From Escherichia phage NHEP1, in sequence record PQ511146.1: a stretch of 64,000 nt of DNA; one strand, given 5' to 3'. The translations under genes were made by a program, and so were the position numbers. Shown piece after piece: positions 3,576 through 63,885 of this stretch. The notes under the pieces are model-generated. The model was given only the letters and a program-made list of their open reading frames with translations, searched no databases and was not told where the DNA came from. Position 1 is the first letter of the stretch; every line of letters begins with the position of its first letter.

Positions 3576-4586
3576 TTAGCCACCGTTTTTCAGAGTTGCT
3601 TTAACAACCAGCTCTGGGCGGGTGTTAACTGCCAGCATAGAAGTTTCAGATTCAATCTTCTCTTCACGCAGGTATGCAGAGTGTTTATACCACATGTACA
3701 GTTCCTGTGCTGGAGTGTTTGCTTCGTTAACATCGTCTGCCGGAGCAAAGTGCAGCTGGAACATCTGATCAATACCCATCGGCAGAATGCGAGCTTCTTT
3801 CTTAGGAATATTGCCAGAGATATCTTCGATAAAGGTGATACCTTTATGTTCAAACACACGGTATACGCTGTCTTGACCGCCAGCACCCAGACGGCGACGC
3901 AGAGGTTCCTGAGCAGAGCCGTAATAGGTGTATGCCAGTTCTACCAGTGGGTGATGGGTAATAGCACTGAAGAACTCTGGTGAGCACAGAGCTACAATAC
4001 GATAGCCAGCTGCGTTATCACCAGCTTGCAGTGCGATGTGCAGACGAGCTTCTTCCAGAACCTCCATAGGATCCTGATCTGCTTTTGCAGGGTCGATCTC
4101 AACAGACTTCTGAGACACACCCCACAGAGTGTAGTAATCATACTGGCAGGTAGCGTCACCAGGCGCATAGGATTTACCCAGAATAGCCTGGAACAGCGCT
4201 TTCTCACGCAGTGCTTCATGAGAAACACGGATACGGCGAACAACGCGGGTTACTACATCCTGAACAGTTTTCGGAGCATCAGGGGTGAAGTAACGACGGA
4301 AGTTCTGAACATCTGCAGCAGTGATGCCTTTGTCCAGAGGGAAGAACGGGATGTTCAGGTTTTTAACCTGGGCACGTTCACTACCAACGTAGTTACGCTC
4401 ACCACCACGACGGCGTGCCGGAATGTCGGTTACAACTTCATCAACACGCTCGATCTGAGCAATTGTTGAGGTGCCGAGACGGGTTTCGAACAGATCCATA
4501 CCGGTAATCAGTCGGAATTGGCGCGGAACAAGGTCCAGAGTAGCACCTAAATCGACAATGCCAAATTCATCTTTACGAGTAATCAT
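3576..4586 (-). CDS. major capsid protein
   Basis: 336-aa ORF between scaffold/decoration genes and a strong terminator; lambda-like order terminase-portal-scaffold-(D-like)-capsid. Assigned by synteny and size, not by motif. Confidence 0.6.
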   Translation of the reverse strand: MITRKDEFGIVDLGATLDLVPRQFRLITGMDLFETRLGTSTIAQIERVDEVVTDIPARRRGGERNYVGSERAQVKNLNIPFFPLDKGITAADVQNFRRYFTPDAPKTVQDVVTRVVRRIRVSHEALREKALFQAILGKSYAPGDATCQYDYYTLWGVSQKSVEIDPAKADQDPMEVLEEARLHIALQAGDNAAGYRIVALCSPEFFSAITHHPLVELAYTYYGSAQEPLRRRLGAGGQDSVYRVFEHKGITFIEDISGNIPKKEARILPMGIDQMFQLHFAPADDVNEANTPAQELYMWYKHSAYLREEKIESETSMLAVNTRPELVVKATLKNGG

Positions 4587-13740: not shown

Positions 13741-13990
13741 GAGCGATTTAGGGGCCTTCTTGTCAGTTTCCACACATAAACTTTATCCGAACTCGCGCGG
13801 GAGGCTCTCAACCGACTCCTTCCGGCGCTGGCAAGCTTTCGTCGGTGGTCCACATTAGTGCTCGGCCTTTGGCCTGCGCTATCGCTTCGCTCCCACACAT
13901 GTTAACAGTCCTGCATGTATGCACTTCTGTTATTGTGTGCACTATGGAGGCCCGGCATCTCGCCCCTCGTAGGCGAGTGCCAATGAAGGG
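13741..13990. other. GC-rich ORF-free island (candidate structured RNA or eroded gene)
   Basis: About 250 bp visibly GC-enriched in an AT-rich genome, no ORF of 60 aa or more in any frame; nested hairpins such as GGCCC...CTCGCC-CCTCGTA-GGCGAG...GGGCC. Confidence 0.3.
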
Positions 13991-14141
13991 CCGACACTAC
14001 CCATGATAAGTAATAAATTTAAAACATGGTACTTAGGATCTAGTATATTCTACATAAGTTAAGTATATGTACTTTAGTACCATAAGTACTAGATCTTTTA
14101 TTTTTTTTTATTATTTAGTTATTTTAGTTATATTCTTTATG

Positions 14142-14224
14142 TGTCCGTATCACGGACAGTTAGTGTCCGTATTACGGGCAGATGTGTCCGCGTGACGGAC
14201 AGTGGTGTCCGTATCACGGACAGT
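14142..14224. repeat. four-copy array of 18-bp palindromic iterons (TGTCCGTATCACGGACAG family)
   Basis: Copies at 14142-14159, 14165-14182, 14186-14203, 14207-14224 (first and last identical, two with 2-3 substitutions); each an inverted repeat; AT-rich tract 14095-14140 upstream. Confidence 0.8.
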
Positions 14225-54330: not shown

Positions 54331-54608
54331 GCCATGCCATTCGTTTGCATGAAAACAATTAACAAGATAACAATTGACAAGCTAACAGCCAACAAGCTGA
54401 CAGTTAATAAGTTAATAAGTTATGACATAATATAAAAGCAGGGCAACTATTAGAAGATCTATAGTTGCCTTGCTTGTTATGTCATGATTAACTAAATACA
54501 AGGCAACTATGATCTGAATAATAGATTGCAGACAAACTATCACGGGGGTGATTGTTACTGCTTTTATATTATGTCGCGACTCCGTCGCGCCATGCCATTC
54601 GTTTGCAT
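54331..54608. repeat. 20-bp direct repeats flanking an 18-bp inverted-repeat element
   Basis: Direct repeat GCCATGCCATTCGTTTGCAT at 54331-54350 and 54589-54608; inverted repeat GACATAATATAAAAGCAG (54424-54441) / CTGCTTTTATATTATGTC (54559-54576); inner palindrome GGCAACTAT...ATAGTTGCC (54442-54469). Confidence 0.75.
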
Positions 54609-58794: not shown

Positions 58795-58998
58795 GGTTTT
58801 AACTCCTATCTATCTGGTTAATGATTGGAGGCCTCACCGCTCCCCCGACACCCTTTATTATCCATATTGTAGGACTTGATGCAAGTACTTCTTTAAAAAT
58901 TTTTAAGCGCCTTGAGGCCGCTGTAACGCCAAAATAATAAAGGCCATGCGGTTGCATAGCCATTAGATGATTATATCGCTGTAGGCCCTGCTGGGGCC

Positions 58999-59672: not shown

Positions 59673-59717
59673 TACTCCTTTTTTGCACTGATTATTTTAA
59701 CAGGGTTTAAATTTACT

Positions 59718-59760
59718 TTATTGATGGCCCTGGAATCAAGGCCATCTAAAAATAAATTTT
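59718..59760. promoter_or_regulatory. conserved intergenic hairpin element (motif B, copy 1)
   Basis: TTATTGATGGCCCTG-GAAT-CAAGGCCATCTAAAAATAAATTTTA; a 10-bp stem with AT-rich flanks; near-identical copy at 63424-63466. Confidence 0.5.
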
Positions 59761-59959
59761 ACAGGCCTACAATCTCTTTAATTCGTTTTACTGCTGCCTC
59801 AGCGCCTTGAGGGTAAAAATTATGGTAACCAATCACGCGAGTGATACTAATCGCCGTTTGATGATCTTCATAATCACCTTTAAAGATTTCTTGACCGTCA
59901 ATCAGCACGGCAATTTTTTCTTCTTTTTTGAAGTTAATAACGCGGATATTGTTGCTCAT
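59759..59959 (-). CDS. hypothetical early protein
   Basis: 66-aa ORF. Confidence 0.4.
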   Translation of the reverse strand: MSNNIRVINFKKEEKIAVLIDGQEIFKGDYEDHQTAISITRVIGYHNFYPQGAEAAVKRIKEIVGL

Positions 59960-60235
59960 TTTGTTTCTCCTTTCTAGTCTTTGTGGTGGGGATTGCTCCC
60001 CGTTGATTGTTATTATCCATATTCCGGACCGGATTGCAACACCCTAGAAGAAAAATTTTTGAAAAAGTTAAGCCCCCAGGGATTGGGGGCCGTTATCAGT
60101 TACTTACAGCGATAAAGTACATCCCTACGCCTAACAATATTTCAAGAGCGATGATCTCAAGCCATACCGTAACACGGCGCACCTTATCGGTGCGGGGCTT
60201 ATCCTTGGGTGTCATCGTCTCCCCCTTTCCTCCTG

Positions 60236-60454
60236 TTAGCAGTTACGTGGTTTGCAATGGTCCCCAGGAGTATTATCACCACGCACATTACAAGAAAAAT
60301 TATCTCTGTCGTTGTTCGATCCATTGTTATAAAATTCCTTAAGATCAGGCCTGAAAATAAAGCTTTCGTTATTGAATCCATCCCGCCAGGCGGCTGGCTT
60401 CAAATCTTCACTAAATGGATTAATTAACGTGGCATTATTTCGGCTGGCCCACAT
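60236..60454 (-). CDS. hypothetical early protein
   Basis: 72-aa ORF with strong AAGAGGAA RBS; preferred over the overlapping 60199-60381 frame. Confidence 0.35.
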   Translation of the reverse strand: MWASRNNATLINPFSEDLKPAAWRDGFNNESFIFRPDLKEFYNNGSNNDRDNFSCNVRGDNTPGDHCKPRNC

Positions 60455-60836
60455 ATTTTCTATTCCTCTTAAATAAGCGATCCGCCTCAGTTAAACAAAT
60501 CTCATGGGCGTGATCTCTGGTTTTAGCTTCATCGAAAACCTGTTGTGCAAGGCTGCAACGTAGGGAGACTGGAAGATCACTATAATAGGCGTTGACAAAC
60601 GTTTGAGCGTCGTACAGGTCTGAAAATACTTTACCCTTTCTATTATTCCCCTTGTCAACAATTGCAAGGATAACCAATACAATAGTTGCAACCACCCCCA
60701 GGAAAATAGATATAATAAACCATAAAAAGGCGGATCTTCCCATCTTGCCAGCGATCCAGGCGTTAAACAAGGCAACCAATACAGCCAAAATAATAAATTC
60801 CATTCTATGTACCTCTTTTACAGTTCTGATTAACAA
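60435..60836 (-). CDS. membrane protein (two transmembrane segments)
   Basis: 133 aa; FIILAVLVALFNAWIAG and FLWFIISIFLGVVATIVLVILAIV. Confidence 0.45.
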   Translation of the reverse strand: MLIRTVKEVHRMEFIILAVLVALFNAWIAGKMGRSAFLWFIISIFLGVVATIVLVILAIVDKGNNRKGKVFSDLYDAQTFVNAYYSDLPVSLRCSLAQQVFDEAKTRDHAHEICLTEADRLFKRNRKYVGQPK

Positions 60837-60867
60837 TAAGGCGGCAAATATGCCGCCTGTTACCTGA

Positions 60868-61248
60868 TTAAAAATTATCGCCGTAAATCTTTCCGCTTTC
60901 TACCCATACCACCACGCGAGGCATACTATCCCACACGTCTTGTTTTAGATTGAGCGCGTGCAATTCTTCGGTGGTGCTCATACCAGGCACGGGCTGATTG
61001 TATACTGCAAAACGACCACCCGCATAATCATAGGCCAGGGTTAAATCACACTGGATCATCTTTTTGATCATGGCATTAAGCATGGCGTTAGCCGCATATT
61101 GATCACGTTTTAAAGGCAACTCTTTGATTAGTTTGCGATAGTTTTCGATATGGTCGCACACTGTTTCACGCGGAAGATCTTTCATATCTTCACGGAATGT
61201 GACCAGGTTAAACATAACGGTGTCAATAGCCTTGGTAGTGTTTTTCAT
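60868..61248 (-). CDS. hypothetical early protein
   Basis: 126-aa ORF. Confidence 0.45.
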   Translation of the reverse strand: MKNTTKAIDTVMFNLVTFREDMKDLPRETVCDHIENYRKLIKELPLKRDQYAANAMLNAMIKKMIQCDLTLAYDYAGGRFAVYNQPVPGMSTTEELHALNLKQDVWDSMPRVVVWVESGKIYGDNF

Positions 61249-61338
61249 GATGTTATCCTCTTTGTTTTGTGTTGGGGCAAACGTCTTGCCCCCTTGAGTT
61301 TTAATATAGCAGGTTTTTAGGTTATTGCAACACTTTAT

Positions 61339-61962
61339 TTATGAAAAAGTCATCTCACCATATTCATCGACATCAAACCGCCAATCATTGGCCTCGATAA
61401 GGCCGATCAGGTTTTCTGCGGTGAACTGTTCTAGATAGGCCTCCTCCAGGTCTACGTAAACCTTGCGGGATAGCTCCCGTGCCGTCTCGGTGATCAGTTC
61501 TTCCAGGTCTTCCACTTTGTTTTCTTGTTTGGCGGTCAGATCTAGCCAAGTGGTATCAATGTACCCGTTTACAGTGTTTTCATGGCTGTAATGGCTGTAC
61601 TTGTCGCGTTCAATACTGGCGGATAGTTCGCCATCGTGCATTGTGCCGAACAAGTGACGAATTGATCTGAACTTGGTCAGGGCCTTGACTTTACGCAAGA
61701 ATTTTTCTAAGTCTACATTTTCAGCACTGATCGATGCGCCATCGCCTTGACACCAAAAGCCGGACCAATGTACTTCGGTATCTTCAAGGCCGTACTCTGG
61801 AAAGATATATTCTTTGTAGTATTCAATTACATTTTCTGCAAAAAAGTCATCCCCGCTGCGTTCTTCTCTTTCGCGTACCATTTCAATGGCTTTTTCTTTT
61901 TGTTCGTCGGTCAGCACGTCGAAAGATAAATTGTAACCTGTGGTAATGTTAACGGTGGTCAT
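61339..61962 (-). CDS. hypothetical acidic early protein
   Basis: 207 aa, strongly acidic, conserved-looking WSGFWCQGDGASI block; first gene after promoter 62010-62037. Confidence 0.5.
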   Translation of the reverse strand: MTTVNITTGYNLSFDVLTDEQKEKAIEMVREREERSGDDFFAENVIEYYKEYIFPEYGLEDTEVHWSGFWCQGDGASISAENVDLEKFLRKVKALTKFRSIRHLFGTMHDGELSASIERDKYSHYSHENTVNGYIDTTWLDLTAKQENKVEDLEELITETARELSRKVYVDLEEAYLEQFTAENLIGLIEANDWRFDVDEYGEMTFS

Positions 61963-62009
61963 GATATTTTCTCCTGTTTTCTTTGTTAGTGGCGGGAAGT
62001 TTTCCCGCC

Positions 62010-62037
62010 TGCGTGTTTAATTATACTTATTGGGATT
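62010..62037 (-). promoter_or_regulatory. sigma70-like early promoter (consensus) plus leader hairpin
   Basis: Minus strand TTGACA (plus 62032-62037) N16 TATAAT (plus 62010-62015), then AAACACGCAGGCGGG and hairpin GGCGGGAA-AACT-TCCCGCC. Confidence 0.65.
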
Positions 62038-62297
62038 TACTTGTCAACACTATTTTTTAAATTATTGTGGCGCAAAATGTTTAAAATCTCCTCAACGTCA
62101 TCAACACGGCGGCAATTTTTAAACGCTACCAATTGCCCCATGATTTTAATCACTGGGCGGCCTTGCCAGTGCCCCTGAAGAAAGCGCGCCTTGACTTTAT
62201 CGGTGGAACTATCACGCCACCAAATAGCCTTGTTGTTGCAGTAGTAAAAATTATTCAGGATAACATCAACTTTATCAAAATTTTTTAATTTACGCAT
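62037..62297 (-). CDS. hypothetical early protein
   Basis: 86-aa ORF. Confidence 0.45.
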   Translation of the reverse strand: MRKLKNFDKVDVILNNFYYCNNKAIWWRDSSTDKVKARFLQGHWQGRPVIKIMGQLVAFKNCRRVDDVEEILNILRHNNLKNSVDK

Positions 62298-62516
62298 GGC
62301 GTTTACTCCTTTCTCTCTTTGATGTGGTTAGTATAGCTAACCTGTTGACGATGTCAATGATATTTTTAACGCCATAAAACGGCCCTGGGCGATGTTTTCA
62401 GGTTAAAGGGGGGCGATTGCATAGGTGGGGGCCTTTTTGGCACTTACAGGGCCAACCAGGGGCGCTATTCGTAGGATAGAAATAAAAAGCCCCGCACAAT
62501 GGCGGGGCGTTGGTTG

Positions 62517-62714
62517 TTATTTGTCTTTATGGCGGTATCGTTCTGCCTGTCGTTCACGTTCCAAAAGTAGGCAGGGCAATTTACGATCATAATGATTCCG
62601 CCAGATCTTCCCAAACCTTTTTGGCTTATTCAGTTTATTGTTACGCTGTCGGCGTTCTGGCAGCTCTTCGGAATCATGAGGGCGCTTTACAATTTTCTCG
62701 AAATTAATTTTCAT
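62517..62714 (-). CDS. small basic protein (Arg/Lys-rich)
   Basis: Trimmed to MKINFEKIVKRP after AAGGGGGG RBS; RRQRNNKLNKPKRFGKIWRNHYDRK. Confidence 0.4.
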   Translation of the reverse strand: MKINFEKIVKRPHDSEELPERRQRNNKLNKPKRFGKIWRNHYDRKLPCLLLERERQAERYRHKDK

Positions 62715-63057
62715 ATATTCCCCCCTTGCTAACTTCAATATTGGCCTGAATGGCCCGGATACGGCGCTTTATAACTTCCTGATCTGTGTGGTCGTATCCC
62801 CAAAAGTCCACAATTTTTGCGCCCCCAGCCTCCAGGCGGTATAGTGTTTCCTGCATTTTGTAAGCCGGGATCGGTCGCGGTGTTACTTGGTCACCTTCTT
62901 TATTTTTATACTTTATAATATAATCTTCGTTATCGTTGAATTCCCAAAATGGATATTCTGCAAGGGCGGTACTTCCTCTTTCCTTTTTATCCTGGATCTT
63001 ATTTACAATTAAAGCCGTAGCAATAGCGCCAATAATAAAACTAGCCCCGCTGATCAT
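62704..63057 (-). CDS. membrane-anchored early protein
   Basis: Trimmed to MISGASFIIGAIATALIV after AAAGGAGAAA. Confidence 0.4.
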   Translation of the reverse strand: MISGASFIIGAIATALIVNKIQDKKERGSTALAEYPFWEFNDNEDYIIKYKNKEGDQVTPRPIPAYKMQETLYRLEAGGAKIVDFWGYDHTDQEVIKRRIRAIQANIEVSKGGIYEN

Positions 63058-63088
63058 GTTACTTTCTCCTTTCATGGTGTTAATAAAT

Positions 63089-63125
63089 TATCTTTATAGA
63101 TGGCCCTGCAACCAGGACCACCGAA
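63089..63125. promoter_or_regulatory. conserved intergenic hairpin element (motif B, degenerate copy)
   Basis: TATAGATGGCCCTG-CAAC-CAGGACCACCGAAAAATAAC. Confidence 0.4.
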
Positions 63126-63131
63126 AAATAA

Positions 63132-63377
63132 CTATTTCACAATGCCTACAAAACAGATCCCGCCTTCACCTATGTAAGCAATATCGGTCACTTTGTAGTC
63201 GGTTAAGATCTGTTTATTCAGATCATTAATAAAATCGGTCATTGCGTTGGTGTAGTTGTCTTCTGTATCTAAGGCATAATCCCAGGTGTAAACCTTTTTA
63301 CGTCCGAAGCCTTTTACCATGATACGGGCGCTTTTGGTGTTAGTAGGGGCATAATACTTGGTGATTAGTGCTGCCAT
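63132..63377 (-). CDS. hypothetical early protein
   Basis: 81-aa ORF with GAGGAG RBS. Confidence 0.45.
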   Translation of the reverse strand: MAALITKYYAPTNTKSARIMVKGFGRKKVYTWDYALDTEDNYTNAMTDFINDLNKQILTDYKVTDIAYIGEGGICFVGIVK

Positions 63378-63423
63378 GGTTTTAACTCCTCATTAGTTCA
63401 GTGTTAACAGTGTAAAGTTTACT

Positions 63424-63466
63424 TTATTGATGGCCCTGAAGTCAAGGCCATCTAAAAATAAATTTT
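63424..63466. promoter_or_regulatory. conserved intergenic hairpin element (motif B, copy 2)
   Basis: TTATTGATGGCCCTG-AAGT-CAAGGCCATCTAAAAATAAATTTTA. Confidence 0.5.
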
Positions 63467-63806
63467 ACTCGTTTTCTTCCAGCTTTGAAAGCTCTTCTTT
63501 CACTTCTTCAAGCTCTGTCTGCAATTCTTGGTATTCTTCGTCGTCCTCAATATCCAGGCTGTCGATGTAGTCGCTAAATCCGCAGCGGTAAGCGATAGGA
63601 TCTAACTCCTTGAGGATACGCGACGGAAGAAAAGAAATGCTTCCGATCATAATTTCGCCGTAGATCTCGTCTAACCATTCATCATAGTTTTCGTCGTACT
63701 TGTCCTCGTCGATTTCAAAGTTATCGATCTTGTTCTCAAGGTCTGCGATCTGTTTTTTCAGCGCGGCGATCTGCATAGCTTTTTCTGCGGCGGTCATAGT
63801 AGTCAT
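63465..63806 (-). CDS. acidic coiled-coil early protein
   Basis: 113-aa ORF; AAAAGGAGAAAA RBS; downstream of promoter 63858-63885. Confidence 0.5.
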   Translation of the reverse strand: MTTMTAAEKAMQIAALKKQIADLENKIDNFEIDEDKYDENYDEWLDEIYGEIMIGSISFLPSRILKELDPIAYRCGFSDYIDSLDIEDDEEYQELQTELEEVKEELSKLEENE

Positions 63807-63857
63807 GGTGTTTTCTCCTTTTGTGTATTCTGGGAAGTTTTCCCGTTTACGTGTTTA

Positions 63858-63885
63858 AGTATATCAATCTAAGTTAGCTTGTCAA
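63858..63885 (-). promoter_or_regulatory. sigma70-like early promoter plus leader hairpin
   Basis: Minus strand TTGACA (plus 63880-63885) N16 TATACT (plus 63858-63863), then AAACACGTAAACGGG and hairpin GGGAA-AACT-TCCC. Confidence 0.6.

Follow-up and report, generated by a model that had tools for sequence, protein, structure and literature searches.

Every open reading frame (ORF) between 57 and 64 kb of the window, the 64,000-nucleotide (nt) stretch of Escherichia phage NHEP1 (PQ511146.1) analyzed here, lies on the minus strand, and three intergenic gaps in this early region carry a short repeated element, motif B, with the core GATGGCCCTG-N4-CAAGGCCATC. Allowing up to 3 mismatches, a pattern search finds the core at 59723-59746 (copy A), 63099-63122 (copy B), and 63429-63452 (copy C) and nowhere else in the 64 kb, against 0.01 chance matches expected from shuffled sequences; the observed count was reached in 0 of 100 shuffles. 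These are exactly the three copies listed in a preliminary description of the window, and its placement of them a short way upstream of minus-strand start codons also holds, the element ending 14 to 47 nt before the starts at 63075, 63377, and 59672. At its other end, each copy begins at the stop codon of the upstream ORF (Table 1).

Folding shows each copy to be a single hairpin of ~50 nt in the minus-strand RNA. The three share one build. A lower stem of 10 to 13 bp, rich in AU, leads to a small asymmetric internal loop that reads 5' UA / 3' AAU in copies A and C and 5' C / 3' UAU in copy B; above it stand a GC-rich upper stem of 10 bp and a variable tetraloop. Fold energies lie between -24 and -25.6 kcal/mol, with z-scores of -4.6 to -6.0. 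The AT-rich flanks that the preliminary description quoted are present, but they are not mere flanks, since the two pair together into the lower stem. On the plus strand, C.A mismatches fall in the upper stem. Generic folding in sliding steps across the 64 kb gave 253 stable hairpins, too unspecific a result to single out the elements.

Table 1. Motif B copies and the predicted genes, promoters, and terminators of the operons that contain them. Bit scores are from covariance models of the motif B family and of the T7 early sites.
Feature	Position	Strand	Composition or role	Fold (kcal/mol; z)	Family model (bits)	T7-only model (bits; E)
Copy C	63412..63468	minus	Outer stem GUAAA/UUUAC; lower stem UUUAUUUU/AAAGUAAA; internal loop 5' UA / 3' AAU; upper stem GAUGGCCUUG/CAGGGCCAUC (63452-63429); tetraloop ACUU; stop UAA of upstream ORF (63467-63465) within outer stem	-25.6; -6.0	81.7 (antisense 43)	21.6; 0.0026
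Copy B	63086..63133	minus	Lower stem AGUUAUUUUU/AAAGAUAAUU; internal loop 5' C / 3' UAU; upper stem GGUGGUCCUG/CAGGGCCAUC with two G.U pairs; tetraloop GUUG; stop UAG (63134-63132) overlaps stem base; called degenerate in the preliminary description	-24; -4.9 (antisense, without the hairpin, -10.6; -1.0)	65.5	20.0; 0.0079
Copy A	59709..59759	minus	Lower stem AAAUUUAUUUU/AAAGUAAAUUU (11 bp); internal loop 5' UA / 3' AAU; upper stem GAUGGCCUUG/CAGGGCCAUC; tetraloop AUUC; stop UAA (59761-59759) abuts stem	-25.2; -4.6	77.8	23.0; 0.00099 (best match in the window)
Sigma-70 promoter TTGACA-16-TATACT	63858..63885	minus	11/12, with TG; starts operon of copies C and B
113-aa ORF	63465..63806	minus	First cistron of operon; stop codon within base of copy C
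81-aa ORF	63132..63377	minus	Copy C upstream, copy B downstream
Canonical intrinsic terminator GCCCCGCCATTGTGCGGGGC then TTTTTATTTC	62489..62508	minus	Closes operon of copies C and B
Probable sigma-70 promoter TTGCAA-16-GATAAT, then 5'-UTR hairpin	60012..60039	minus	9/12; starts operon of copy A
66-aa ORF	59759..59959	minus	First cistron of operon; stop codon abuts copy A
Intrinsic terminator GGCTATGCAACCGCATGGCC then TTTATTATTT	58942..58961	minus	Closes operon of copy A

The small-gene region has been described in rV5 as a single leftward transcription unit with sigma-70 promoters (PMC3606486). In NHEP1 the elements share their 6 kb with strong promoters (11 to 12 of 12 consensus positions) and canonical U-tract terminators. 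Copies C and B follow the first and second cistrons of the operon that runs from the promoter at 63885 to the terminator at 62508, and copy A follows the first cistron of the operon running from 60039 to 58961; with a sigma-70 promoter before it and a U-tract terminator after it, every copy is intercistronic within a transcript. These operon boundaries are predictions backed by the annotations of rV5, EdH4, and Murica: the first promoter occupies the position annotated P192 in rV5, and both terminators are annotated as such in EdH4 and Murica. The promoter of the copy A operon is a probable one, assigned from the promoter-plus-hairpin layout common to the region's 11-12/12 promoters. In that layout, a short GC-rich hairpin in the 5' untranslated region (5'-UTR) stands ~10 to 25 nt after each early sigma-70 promoter (GGGAAAACTTCCC, GGCGGGAAAACTTCCCGCC, GGGGCAAGACGTTTGCCCC, GGGGAGCAATCCCC), forming minus-strand units at 63830-63885, 61990-62047, 61270-61330, and 59985-60039. 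It looks like a repeated promoter plus 5'-stabilizer module, probably the motif A of the preliminary description.

Over the 5 kb around the elements, NHEP1 is 94 to 96% identical to ~120 Vequintavirus (rV5-like) coliphage genomes, such as EdH4 and Murica, and by this sequence similarity the window is that of an rV5-like Vequintavirus. Seventeen GenBank records (MG0656xx), named 'Campylobacter phage', are 93 to 96% identical to NHEP1 over the same 5 kb, which suggests that they are mislabeled or contaminating Vequintavirus genomes. A motif search in related phages, proposed as a check in the preliminary description, found the elements kept at the same places in ~120 Vequintavirus relatives: blastn locates the element in Vequintavirus genomes only, and at three places per genome in nearly all. 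Many relatives carry a fourth copy, copy D, ~630 nt upstream of copy C; in NHEP1 it would be expected near 64083, just past the end of the window. Within the window, a covariance model of the motif B family detected no copy beyond the three. A blastn search of 5,426 complete E. coli genomes gave nothing similar to the element at E up to 0.01, on which ground a host repeat (REP/BIME and the like) and prophage sequence were rejected. Scanning 56 to 64 kb against Rfam at a permissive E-value gave best element hits of 20 to 30 bits, to unrelated families with gathering thresholds of 47 to 80. An IMG/VR scan with CAGGGCCATCNATAAAG recovered the element from two rV5-like contigs only (three loci, L008, L011, and L012), and the other 15 matching loci are probably chance matches. 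Searched with tblastn, the flanking 81-aa and 207-aa proteins matched unrelated phages (Seuratvirus, T7-like, jumbo) and yielded no orthologous intergenic regions from sister genera within the Vequintavirinae. Homologues of the 81-aa ORF occur in Seuratvirus, T7-like Klebsiella phages, and others; none of six flanking ORFs, including those of 113 and 66 aa, had a Pfam match above cutoff.

Covariation was assessed in 34 distinct variants of the four paralogous copies, drawn from 15 related genomes or contigs plus the window and gathered by exact match to the 3' arm CAGGGCCAUC. In this set 91% of cells pair under the proposed structure, and sliding the partners lowers the figure to 54% or less. 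For the upper stem, the paired share is 100% of cells on the sense strand and 86.8% on the antisense strand (98.2% and 86.0%, respectively, for the core pairs); three of its pairs vary, always between Watson-Crick and G.U, an exchange that preserves pairing only in the sense RNA. Four pairs of the lower stem show compensatory changes (GC/AU/GU in 12/8/8 variants, UA/CG in 23/5, UA/GU/AU/GC in 22/7/4/1, and AU/UA in 22/10). The internal loop reads 5' UA or UC and 3' AAU, UAU, or GAU, with a one-base deletion leaving a 1-nt 5' side (C) in two variants, and the tetraloop takes 10 versions. The family model scores the sense strand 35 to 39 bits above the antisense strand. Given the sense-only G.U pairs together with the compensatory changes, the element is an RNA structure under selection in early mRNA. 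A purely DNA-level palindrome was rejected, as it leaves both the strand-specific G.U pairing and the compensatory changes unexplained.

The classical case of early phage mRNA processed by RNase III is T7. Folding the five T7 intergenic regions that contain its early RNase III sites gave hairpins with a 9- to 10-bp GC-rich upper stem, a 4- to 5-nt loop, a 3' UAU or AAU, and a lower stem. We built a covariance model from the T7 sites R0.3, R0.5, R1, R1.1, and R1.3 alone and searched both strands of the window with it (128 kb, filters off). Its top three matches in the whole window were copies A, C, and B, all on the sense strand and over the full model, with rough E-values that run from 0.001 to 0.0079 (Table 1), and the NAU of the copies aligned to the T7 UAU. 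In relatives, the model recovered all four copies, at up to 31.9 bits (E 2e-6). A T7-like Klebsiella phage, used as a positive control, gave 37 bits, and the first 50 kb of coliphage phi92, used as a negative control, gave nothing below an E-value of 0.9. The fourth match in the window was partial (E 0.05) and fell on a plus-strand hairpin at 40525-40557, AAAGCCCUC-UUCG-GAGGGCUUU followed by UAUGAU, between the plus-strand ORFs 39469-40518 and 40570-41103. This hairpin has CUUUUAUGAU in common with the T7 sites and looks like an intrinsic terminator.

RNase III sites extend over about two helical turns, or 20 to 22 bp (PMC1540722, PMC6212723), and intergenic regions within transcripts are preferred targets of the E. 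coli enzyme (PMC6212723). With 10 bp of upper and 10 to 13 bp of lower stem, all three copies have the two-turn length, and all three are intercistronic in a predicted polycistronic transcript of the host polymerase. The rules derived for a minimal T7 R1.1 substrate specify an 11-bp helix from cut to loop and no strict tetraloop requirement (PMC1540722), so that variation of the motif B tetraloop is to be expected. Counted in the 3' direction from the tetraloop, the aligned R1.1 cut is at 13 nt; motif B likewise has 13, made up of 10 paired nt plus NAU, and its 11th pair would be noncanonical (A x A) where R1.1 has U x C (PMC1540722). An asymmetric internal loop occupies the predicted target position across the 34 variants, and in copies A and C it is identical to that of T7 R1 (5' UA / 3' AAU). 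Such loops restrict cleavage to one strand, and the 3' hairpins that result stabilize the upstream RNA (PMC1540722; PMC3867540).

The distal box of R1.1, U-A followed by U.G, is a positive determinant (PMC1540722). In copies A and C, pair 2 below the loop is U-A and pair 3 is U.G, which is the canonical UA/UG distal box; 22 of the 34 variants have it, copy D of the relatives among them, and 12 have U-A then C-G. In the R1.1 proximal box, position 1 is G-C, position 2 A-U or U-A, position 3 A-U, and position 4 A-U or U-A, with G-C at position 2 blocking binding and G-C at position 4 blocking catalysis (PMC1540722). At position 2 motif B has A-U, or G.U in the case of copy B, and so lacks the strong G/C antideterminant; position 4 is unpaired in all three copies. 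All three also have a G-C pair in midstem, where a GC substitution reportedly enhanced cleavage (PMC1540722). Judged on sequence, the fit of motif B to the RNase III determinants appears good but not perfect.

We hypothesize, with moderate confidence, that the three hairpins are host RNase III processing signals of the T7 early-mRNA type. Sense-strand covariation, the two-turn helix with its internal loop, the position within operons, and the top three ranks under the T7-only model all favor this interpretation. The preliminary description had named RNase III sites among three candidates, chose none of them, and missed the lower stem formed by the flanks, the feature that makes the RNase III reading strong. 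As we envisage it, the hairpin would form in polycistronic early mRNA transcribed by the host RNA polymerase, and RNase III would bind the helix of about two turns in which the 10-bp upper stem is coaxial with the 10- to 13-bp AU-rich lower stem. The small asymmetric internal loop would limit the cut to a single strand, after the 3'-side NAU 13 nt from the tetraloop, which predicts cleavage between 59720 and 59719 in copy A, 63096 and 63095 in copy B, and 63426 and 63425 in copy C. The upstream cistron would then keep a stable 10-bp 3' hairpin resistant to 3' exonucleases and in two cases would also retain the 5'-UTR hairpin that follows the promoter, and downstream cistrons would begin with an AU-rich leader bearing a 5'-monophosphate. 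Overall, adjacent early genes would become independent of one another in stability and expression.

Several points weigh against this hypothesis. The E-values of the T7-only search are rough because its calibration was shortened, and the reciprocal search is weak, the family model finding R0.3 alone in T7 (14 bits, E 0.56). The T7 cleavage coordinates are reportedly 890, 1468, 3138, 5887, and 6450 (Dunn and Studier 1983), the T7 GenBank/RefSeq records as displayed listing no RNase III sites; with these values, the first four cuts fall on the last U of the 3' UAU or AAU, and the R1.3 cut is equally deep within a helix that is more regular. The distal-box U.G is replaced by C-G in copy B. All copies depart from the R1.1 optimum at proximal positions 1 (U-A, not G-C) and 3 (G-C, not A-U), and substitutions at these positions lower binding on minimal R1.1 (PMC1540722). 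The 3' arm CAGGGCCAUC and the NAUAAAG that follows it are invariant in 34 of 34 variants, more than structure alone would need, and this could reflect another constraint or recent gene conversion between copies; the invariance of the arm is in part a result of selection, since the variants were collected by exact match to it. The U.G pair of copies A and C and of the relatives' copy D also creates TTGAC, a -35-like hexamer, which offers a second possible explanation for that wobble. Finally, literature searches pairing rV5 or Vequintavirus with RNase III or transcriptome found no report, and none turned up transcript mapping for any rV5-like phage.

The hairpins could instead be passive devices for RNA stability or insulation in which RNase III has no part, blocking 3' exonucleases after cleavage nearby by RNase E or another enzyme or keeping neighboring cistrons from co-folding. 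A stable, covarying sense-strand hairpin right after a stop codon is what such a role would predict, and the presence of a 5'-UTR hairpin on every primary transcript of the region suggests that protective hairpins are in general use. RNase E prefers AU-rich sites and needs single-stranded RNA; the surroundings are indeed AU-rich, but these stretches are base-paired, forming a conserved lower stem that shows compensatory changes, and a simple barrier requires neither a two-turn helix nor a conserved internal loop nor a T7-like register, so that we consider a passive role unlikely. A binding site for an RNA-binding protein of phage or host, serving as a translational operator or in nut/put-type antitermination, would account for the sequence-specific look of the invariant 3' arm and NAUAAAG and for copies placed early in terminator-ended operons. 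Against it stand the ten tetraloops, which set the element apart from boxB or coat-protein operators, and the 14 to 47 nt before the start codons, which leave the ribosome-binding sites uncovered; these two features in particular disfavor an operator. No candidate protein is known, no Rfam family reaches its gathering score, and the flanking ORFs have no Pfam family, and we regard the protein-site explanation as quite improbable. Copies A and B have orthologues in Murica that are annotated as terminators of 45 nt, and a stable GC-rich upper stem directly after a stop codon invites that reading. The tail of the stem is, however, AAUAAAGUAAA in the sense and UAAAAAUAAA in the antisense direction (UAAAAAUAAAUUUUA in the feature test), with no U-tract on either strand, and an intrinsic terminator was rejected on the ground that no U-rich tract follows the GC-rich hairpin, as the preliminary description had judged. 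The terminator scan passes over the elements and yet reports five canonical terminators in the same 6 kb, EdH4 annotates canonical terminators and not the elements, and the ARNold-based terminator list of the rV5 paper omits them. Immediately downstream come genes that have ribosome-binding sites of their own and lack a strong promoter, and unconventional terminators or attenuators are accordingly very improbable.

Two further alternatives were considered. Internal sigma-70 promoters, alone or besides an RNA signal, would use the TTGAC in the 5' arm and loop as -35 and TAAACT or TAAATT in the 3' flank as -10. The preliminary description had proposed a -35 inside the loop, which is weakly possible for copies A and C (8 to 10 of 12 positions, 18-nt spacer, a range that also covers copy D) and fails for copy B, with 8 of 12 and no recognizable -35. 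A promoter scan does report TTGACT-18-TAAACT (9/12) at copy C, PhagePromoter predictions are annotated over copies A and C in phage Gotham, the loop produces a perfect TTGACA in 6 of the 34 variants (10/12), and minor E. coli promoters adjoin the T7 RNase III sites R0.5 and R1. Set against this, the 18-nt spacer is always suboptimal, copy A of the window itself reaches just 8/12, matches of 9/12 are no commoner than in shuffles (28 found, 21.4 expected), and the real promoters of the region score 11 to 12 of 12. A promoter would moreover leave the sense-only G.U pairs and the compensatory changes unexplained, and its transcript would start downstream of the hairpin; we think this very unlikely. 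The elements are absent from the promoter and terminator table of the rV5 paper and unannotated in the rV5 RefSeq record. The least probable of the alternatives, in our estimation, is that the elements are primarily recombination cassettes, near-identical repeats flanking small early genes that promote gene gain and loss. In each of ECP32 (locus L022, 1274-1297), phiWec189 (L030, 1640-1663), and an IMG/VR contig (L011, 228-251), a single hybrid copy joins the 5' flank of copy D to the 3' flank of copy C, and in CAjan, an unrelated phage, hairpins of similar type border a homologue of the 81-aa gene. Recombination between repeats is expected anyway and need not be their function, and a DNA-level role again does not explain strand-specific G.U pairing with compensatory changes. 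None of these alternatives accounts at once for the sense-only pairing, the two turns of helix with their conserved loop, and the match to the T7 model.

The genomes with the hybrid copy are without the ~630 bp that lie between copies D and C, comprising rV5 ORF193, promoter P192, and ORF192 (the rV5 copies are at 4389 and 5020 of locus L031), and from this sequence comparison it appears that recombination between hairpin copies deleted a gene module. CAjan, a Seuratvirus (L033), has hairpins at 2410-2479 and 2732-2798 on the plus strand and at 1491-1557 on the minus strand that flank its 81-aa homologue; each has an AU-rich lower stem and a 10-bp GC-rich upper stem, followed by AAUAAG, and their family-model scores are weak (E 0.006 to 0.5). 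In the T7-like Klebsiella phage phi1_146030 (L032), a T7-type RNase III site at 2165-2214, scoring 37 bits with the T7-only model, stands directly upstream of an 81-aa homologue, and the same gene family is thus preceded by copy C in the window and by a T7-type site in phi1_146030. The hybrid with its 630-bp deletion in three relatives, the CAjan look-alikes, and the Klebsiella site together hint at portable cassettes. We offer only as a speculative and rather doubtful proposal that the hairpins are RNase III sites traveling with small early genes among Vequintavirus, Seuratvirus, and T7-like coliphages and belong to a wider unrecognized class. As RNA, such hairpins would set the stability of single early cistrons; as DNA repeats, they would supply homology for gene gain and loss.

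Three other features of the window were noted in passing. Between the terminator at 62489-62508 and the next minus-strand promoter downstream (62330-62357), ~190 nt at 62300-62490 hold no convincingly sized ORF, and some relatives have extra small ORFs annotated there. A near-perfect hairpin of 25 to 27 bp at 54421-54484, stable on both strands (-32.5 and -26.2 kcal/mol), is possibly a bidirectional terminator. At 13937-14224, very stable hairpins (to -34.7 kcal/mol) cluster on both strands with repeated GTCCGT/ACGGAC units.

Phages of the rV5 type are in wide use, both as agents against E. coli O157 and as components of phage cocktails. If the RNase III hypothesis is right, these phages rely on host RNase III to shape early gene expression, a dependence that to our knowledge is textbook so far only for T7-like phages and lambda. 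The hypothesis gives exact, testable cleavage positions, and it would call for correction of the annotations of the elements as terminators (Murica) or promoters (Gotham). The first cistrons, of 113 and 66 aa, would become unusually stable monocistronic mRNAs with a hairpin at both ends, which would flag their products as proteins needed in quantity early in infection. It would also mean that a model of five T7 sites is able to find such signals in unrelated phages.

Among known elements, intrinsic terminators resemble motif B in having a GC-rich stem-loop just downstream of a stop codon, but the flanks of motif B pair into a lower stem, and the same operons have genuine U-tract terminators at other places. 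The promoter-stem-loop repeats (PeSLs) of T4-type phages, which reportedly have been proposed to act in gene gain and loss, are by such accounts likewise short, near-identical intergenic stem-loop repeats that flank small early ORFs in a variable region and recombine between copies; motif B differs from PeSLs so described in its weak or absent promoter part, its selection at the RNA level, and the placement of the strong promoters in a separate module. A third comparison is with the early sites of T7. Both they and motif B are sense-strand hairpins between early genes transcribed by the host polymerase; motif B starts at the upstream stop codon, and T7 R0.5 and R1 lie at or near theirs. Both have a 9- to 10-bp GC-rich upper stem, a 4- to 5-nt loop of free sequence, a small asymmetric internal loop with UAU or AAU on its 3' side, and a lower stem rich in AU; the U-A, U.G distal box of R1.1 recurs in copies A and C, and within each phage, T7 or NHEP1, the sites are similar to one another in sequence (PMC1540722, PMC3867540). 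The phage that carries motif B is, in contrast to T7, a 136-kb myovirus (Vequintavirus) with no T7-type RNA polymerase, and its sites are spread over several short operons, whereas those of T7 lie in one 7-kb precursor. The lower stem of motif B is longer, almost purely A/U, and more regular, and sequence homology is limited to short stretches (GGCC, NAU).

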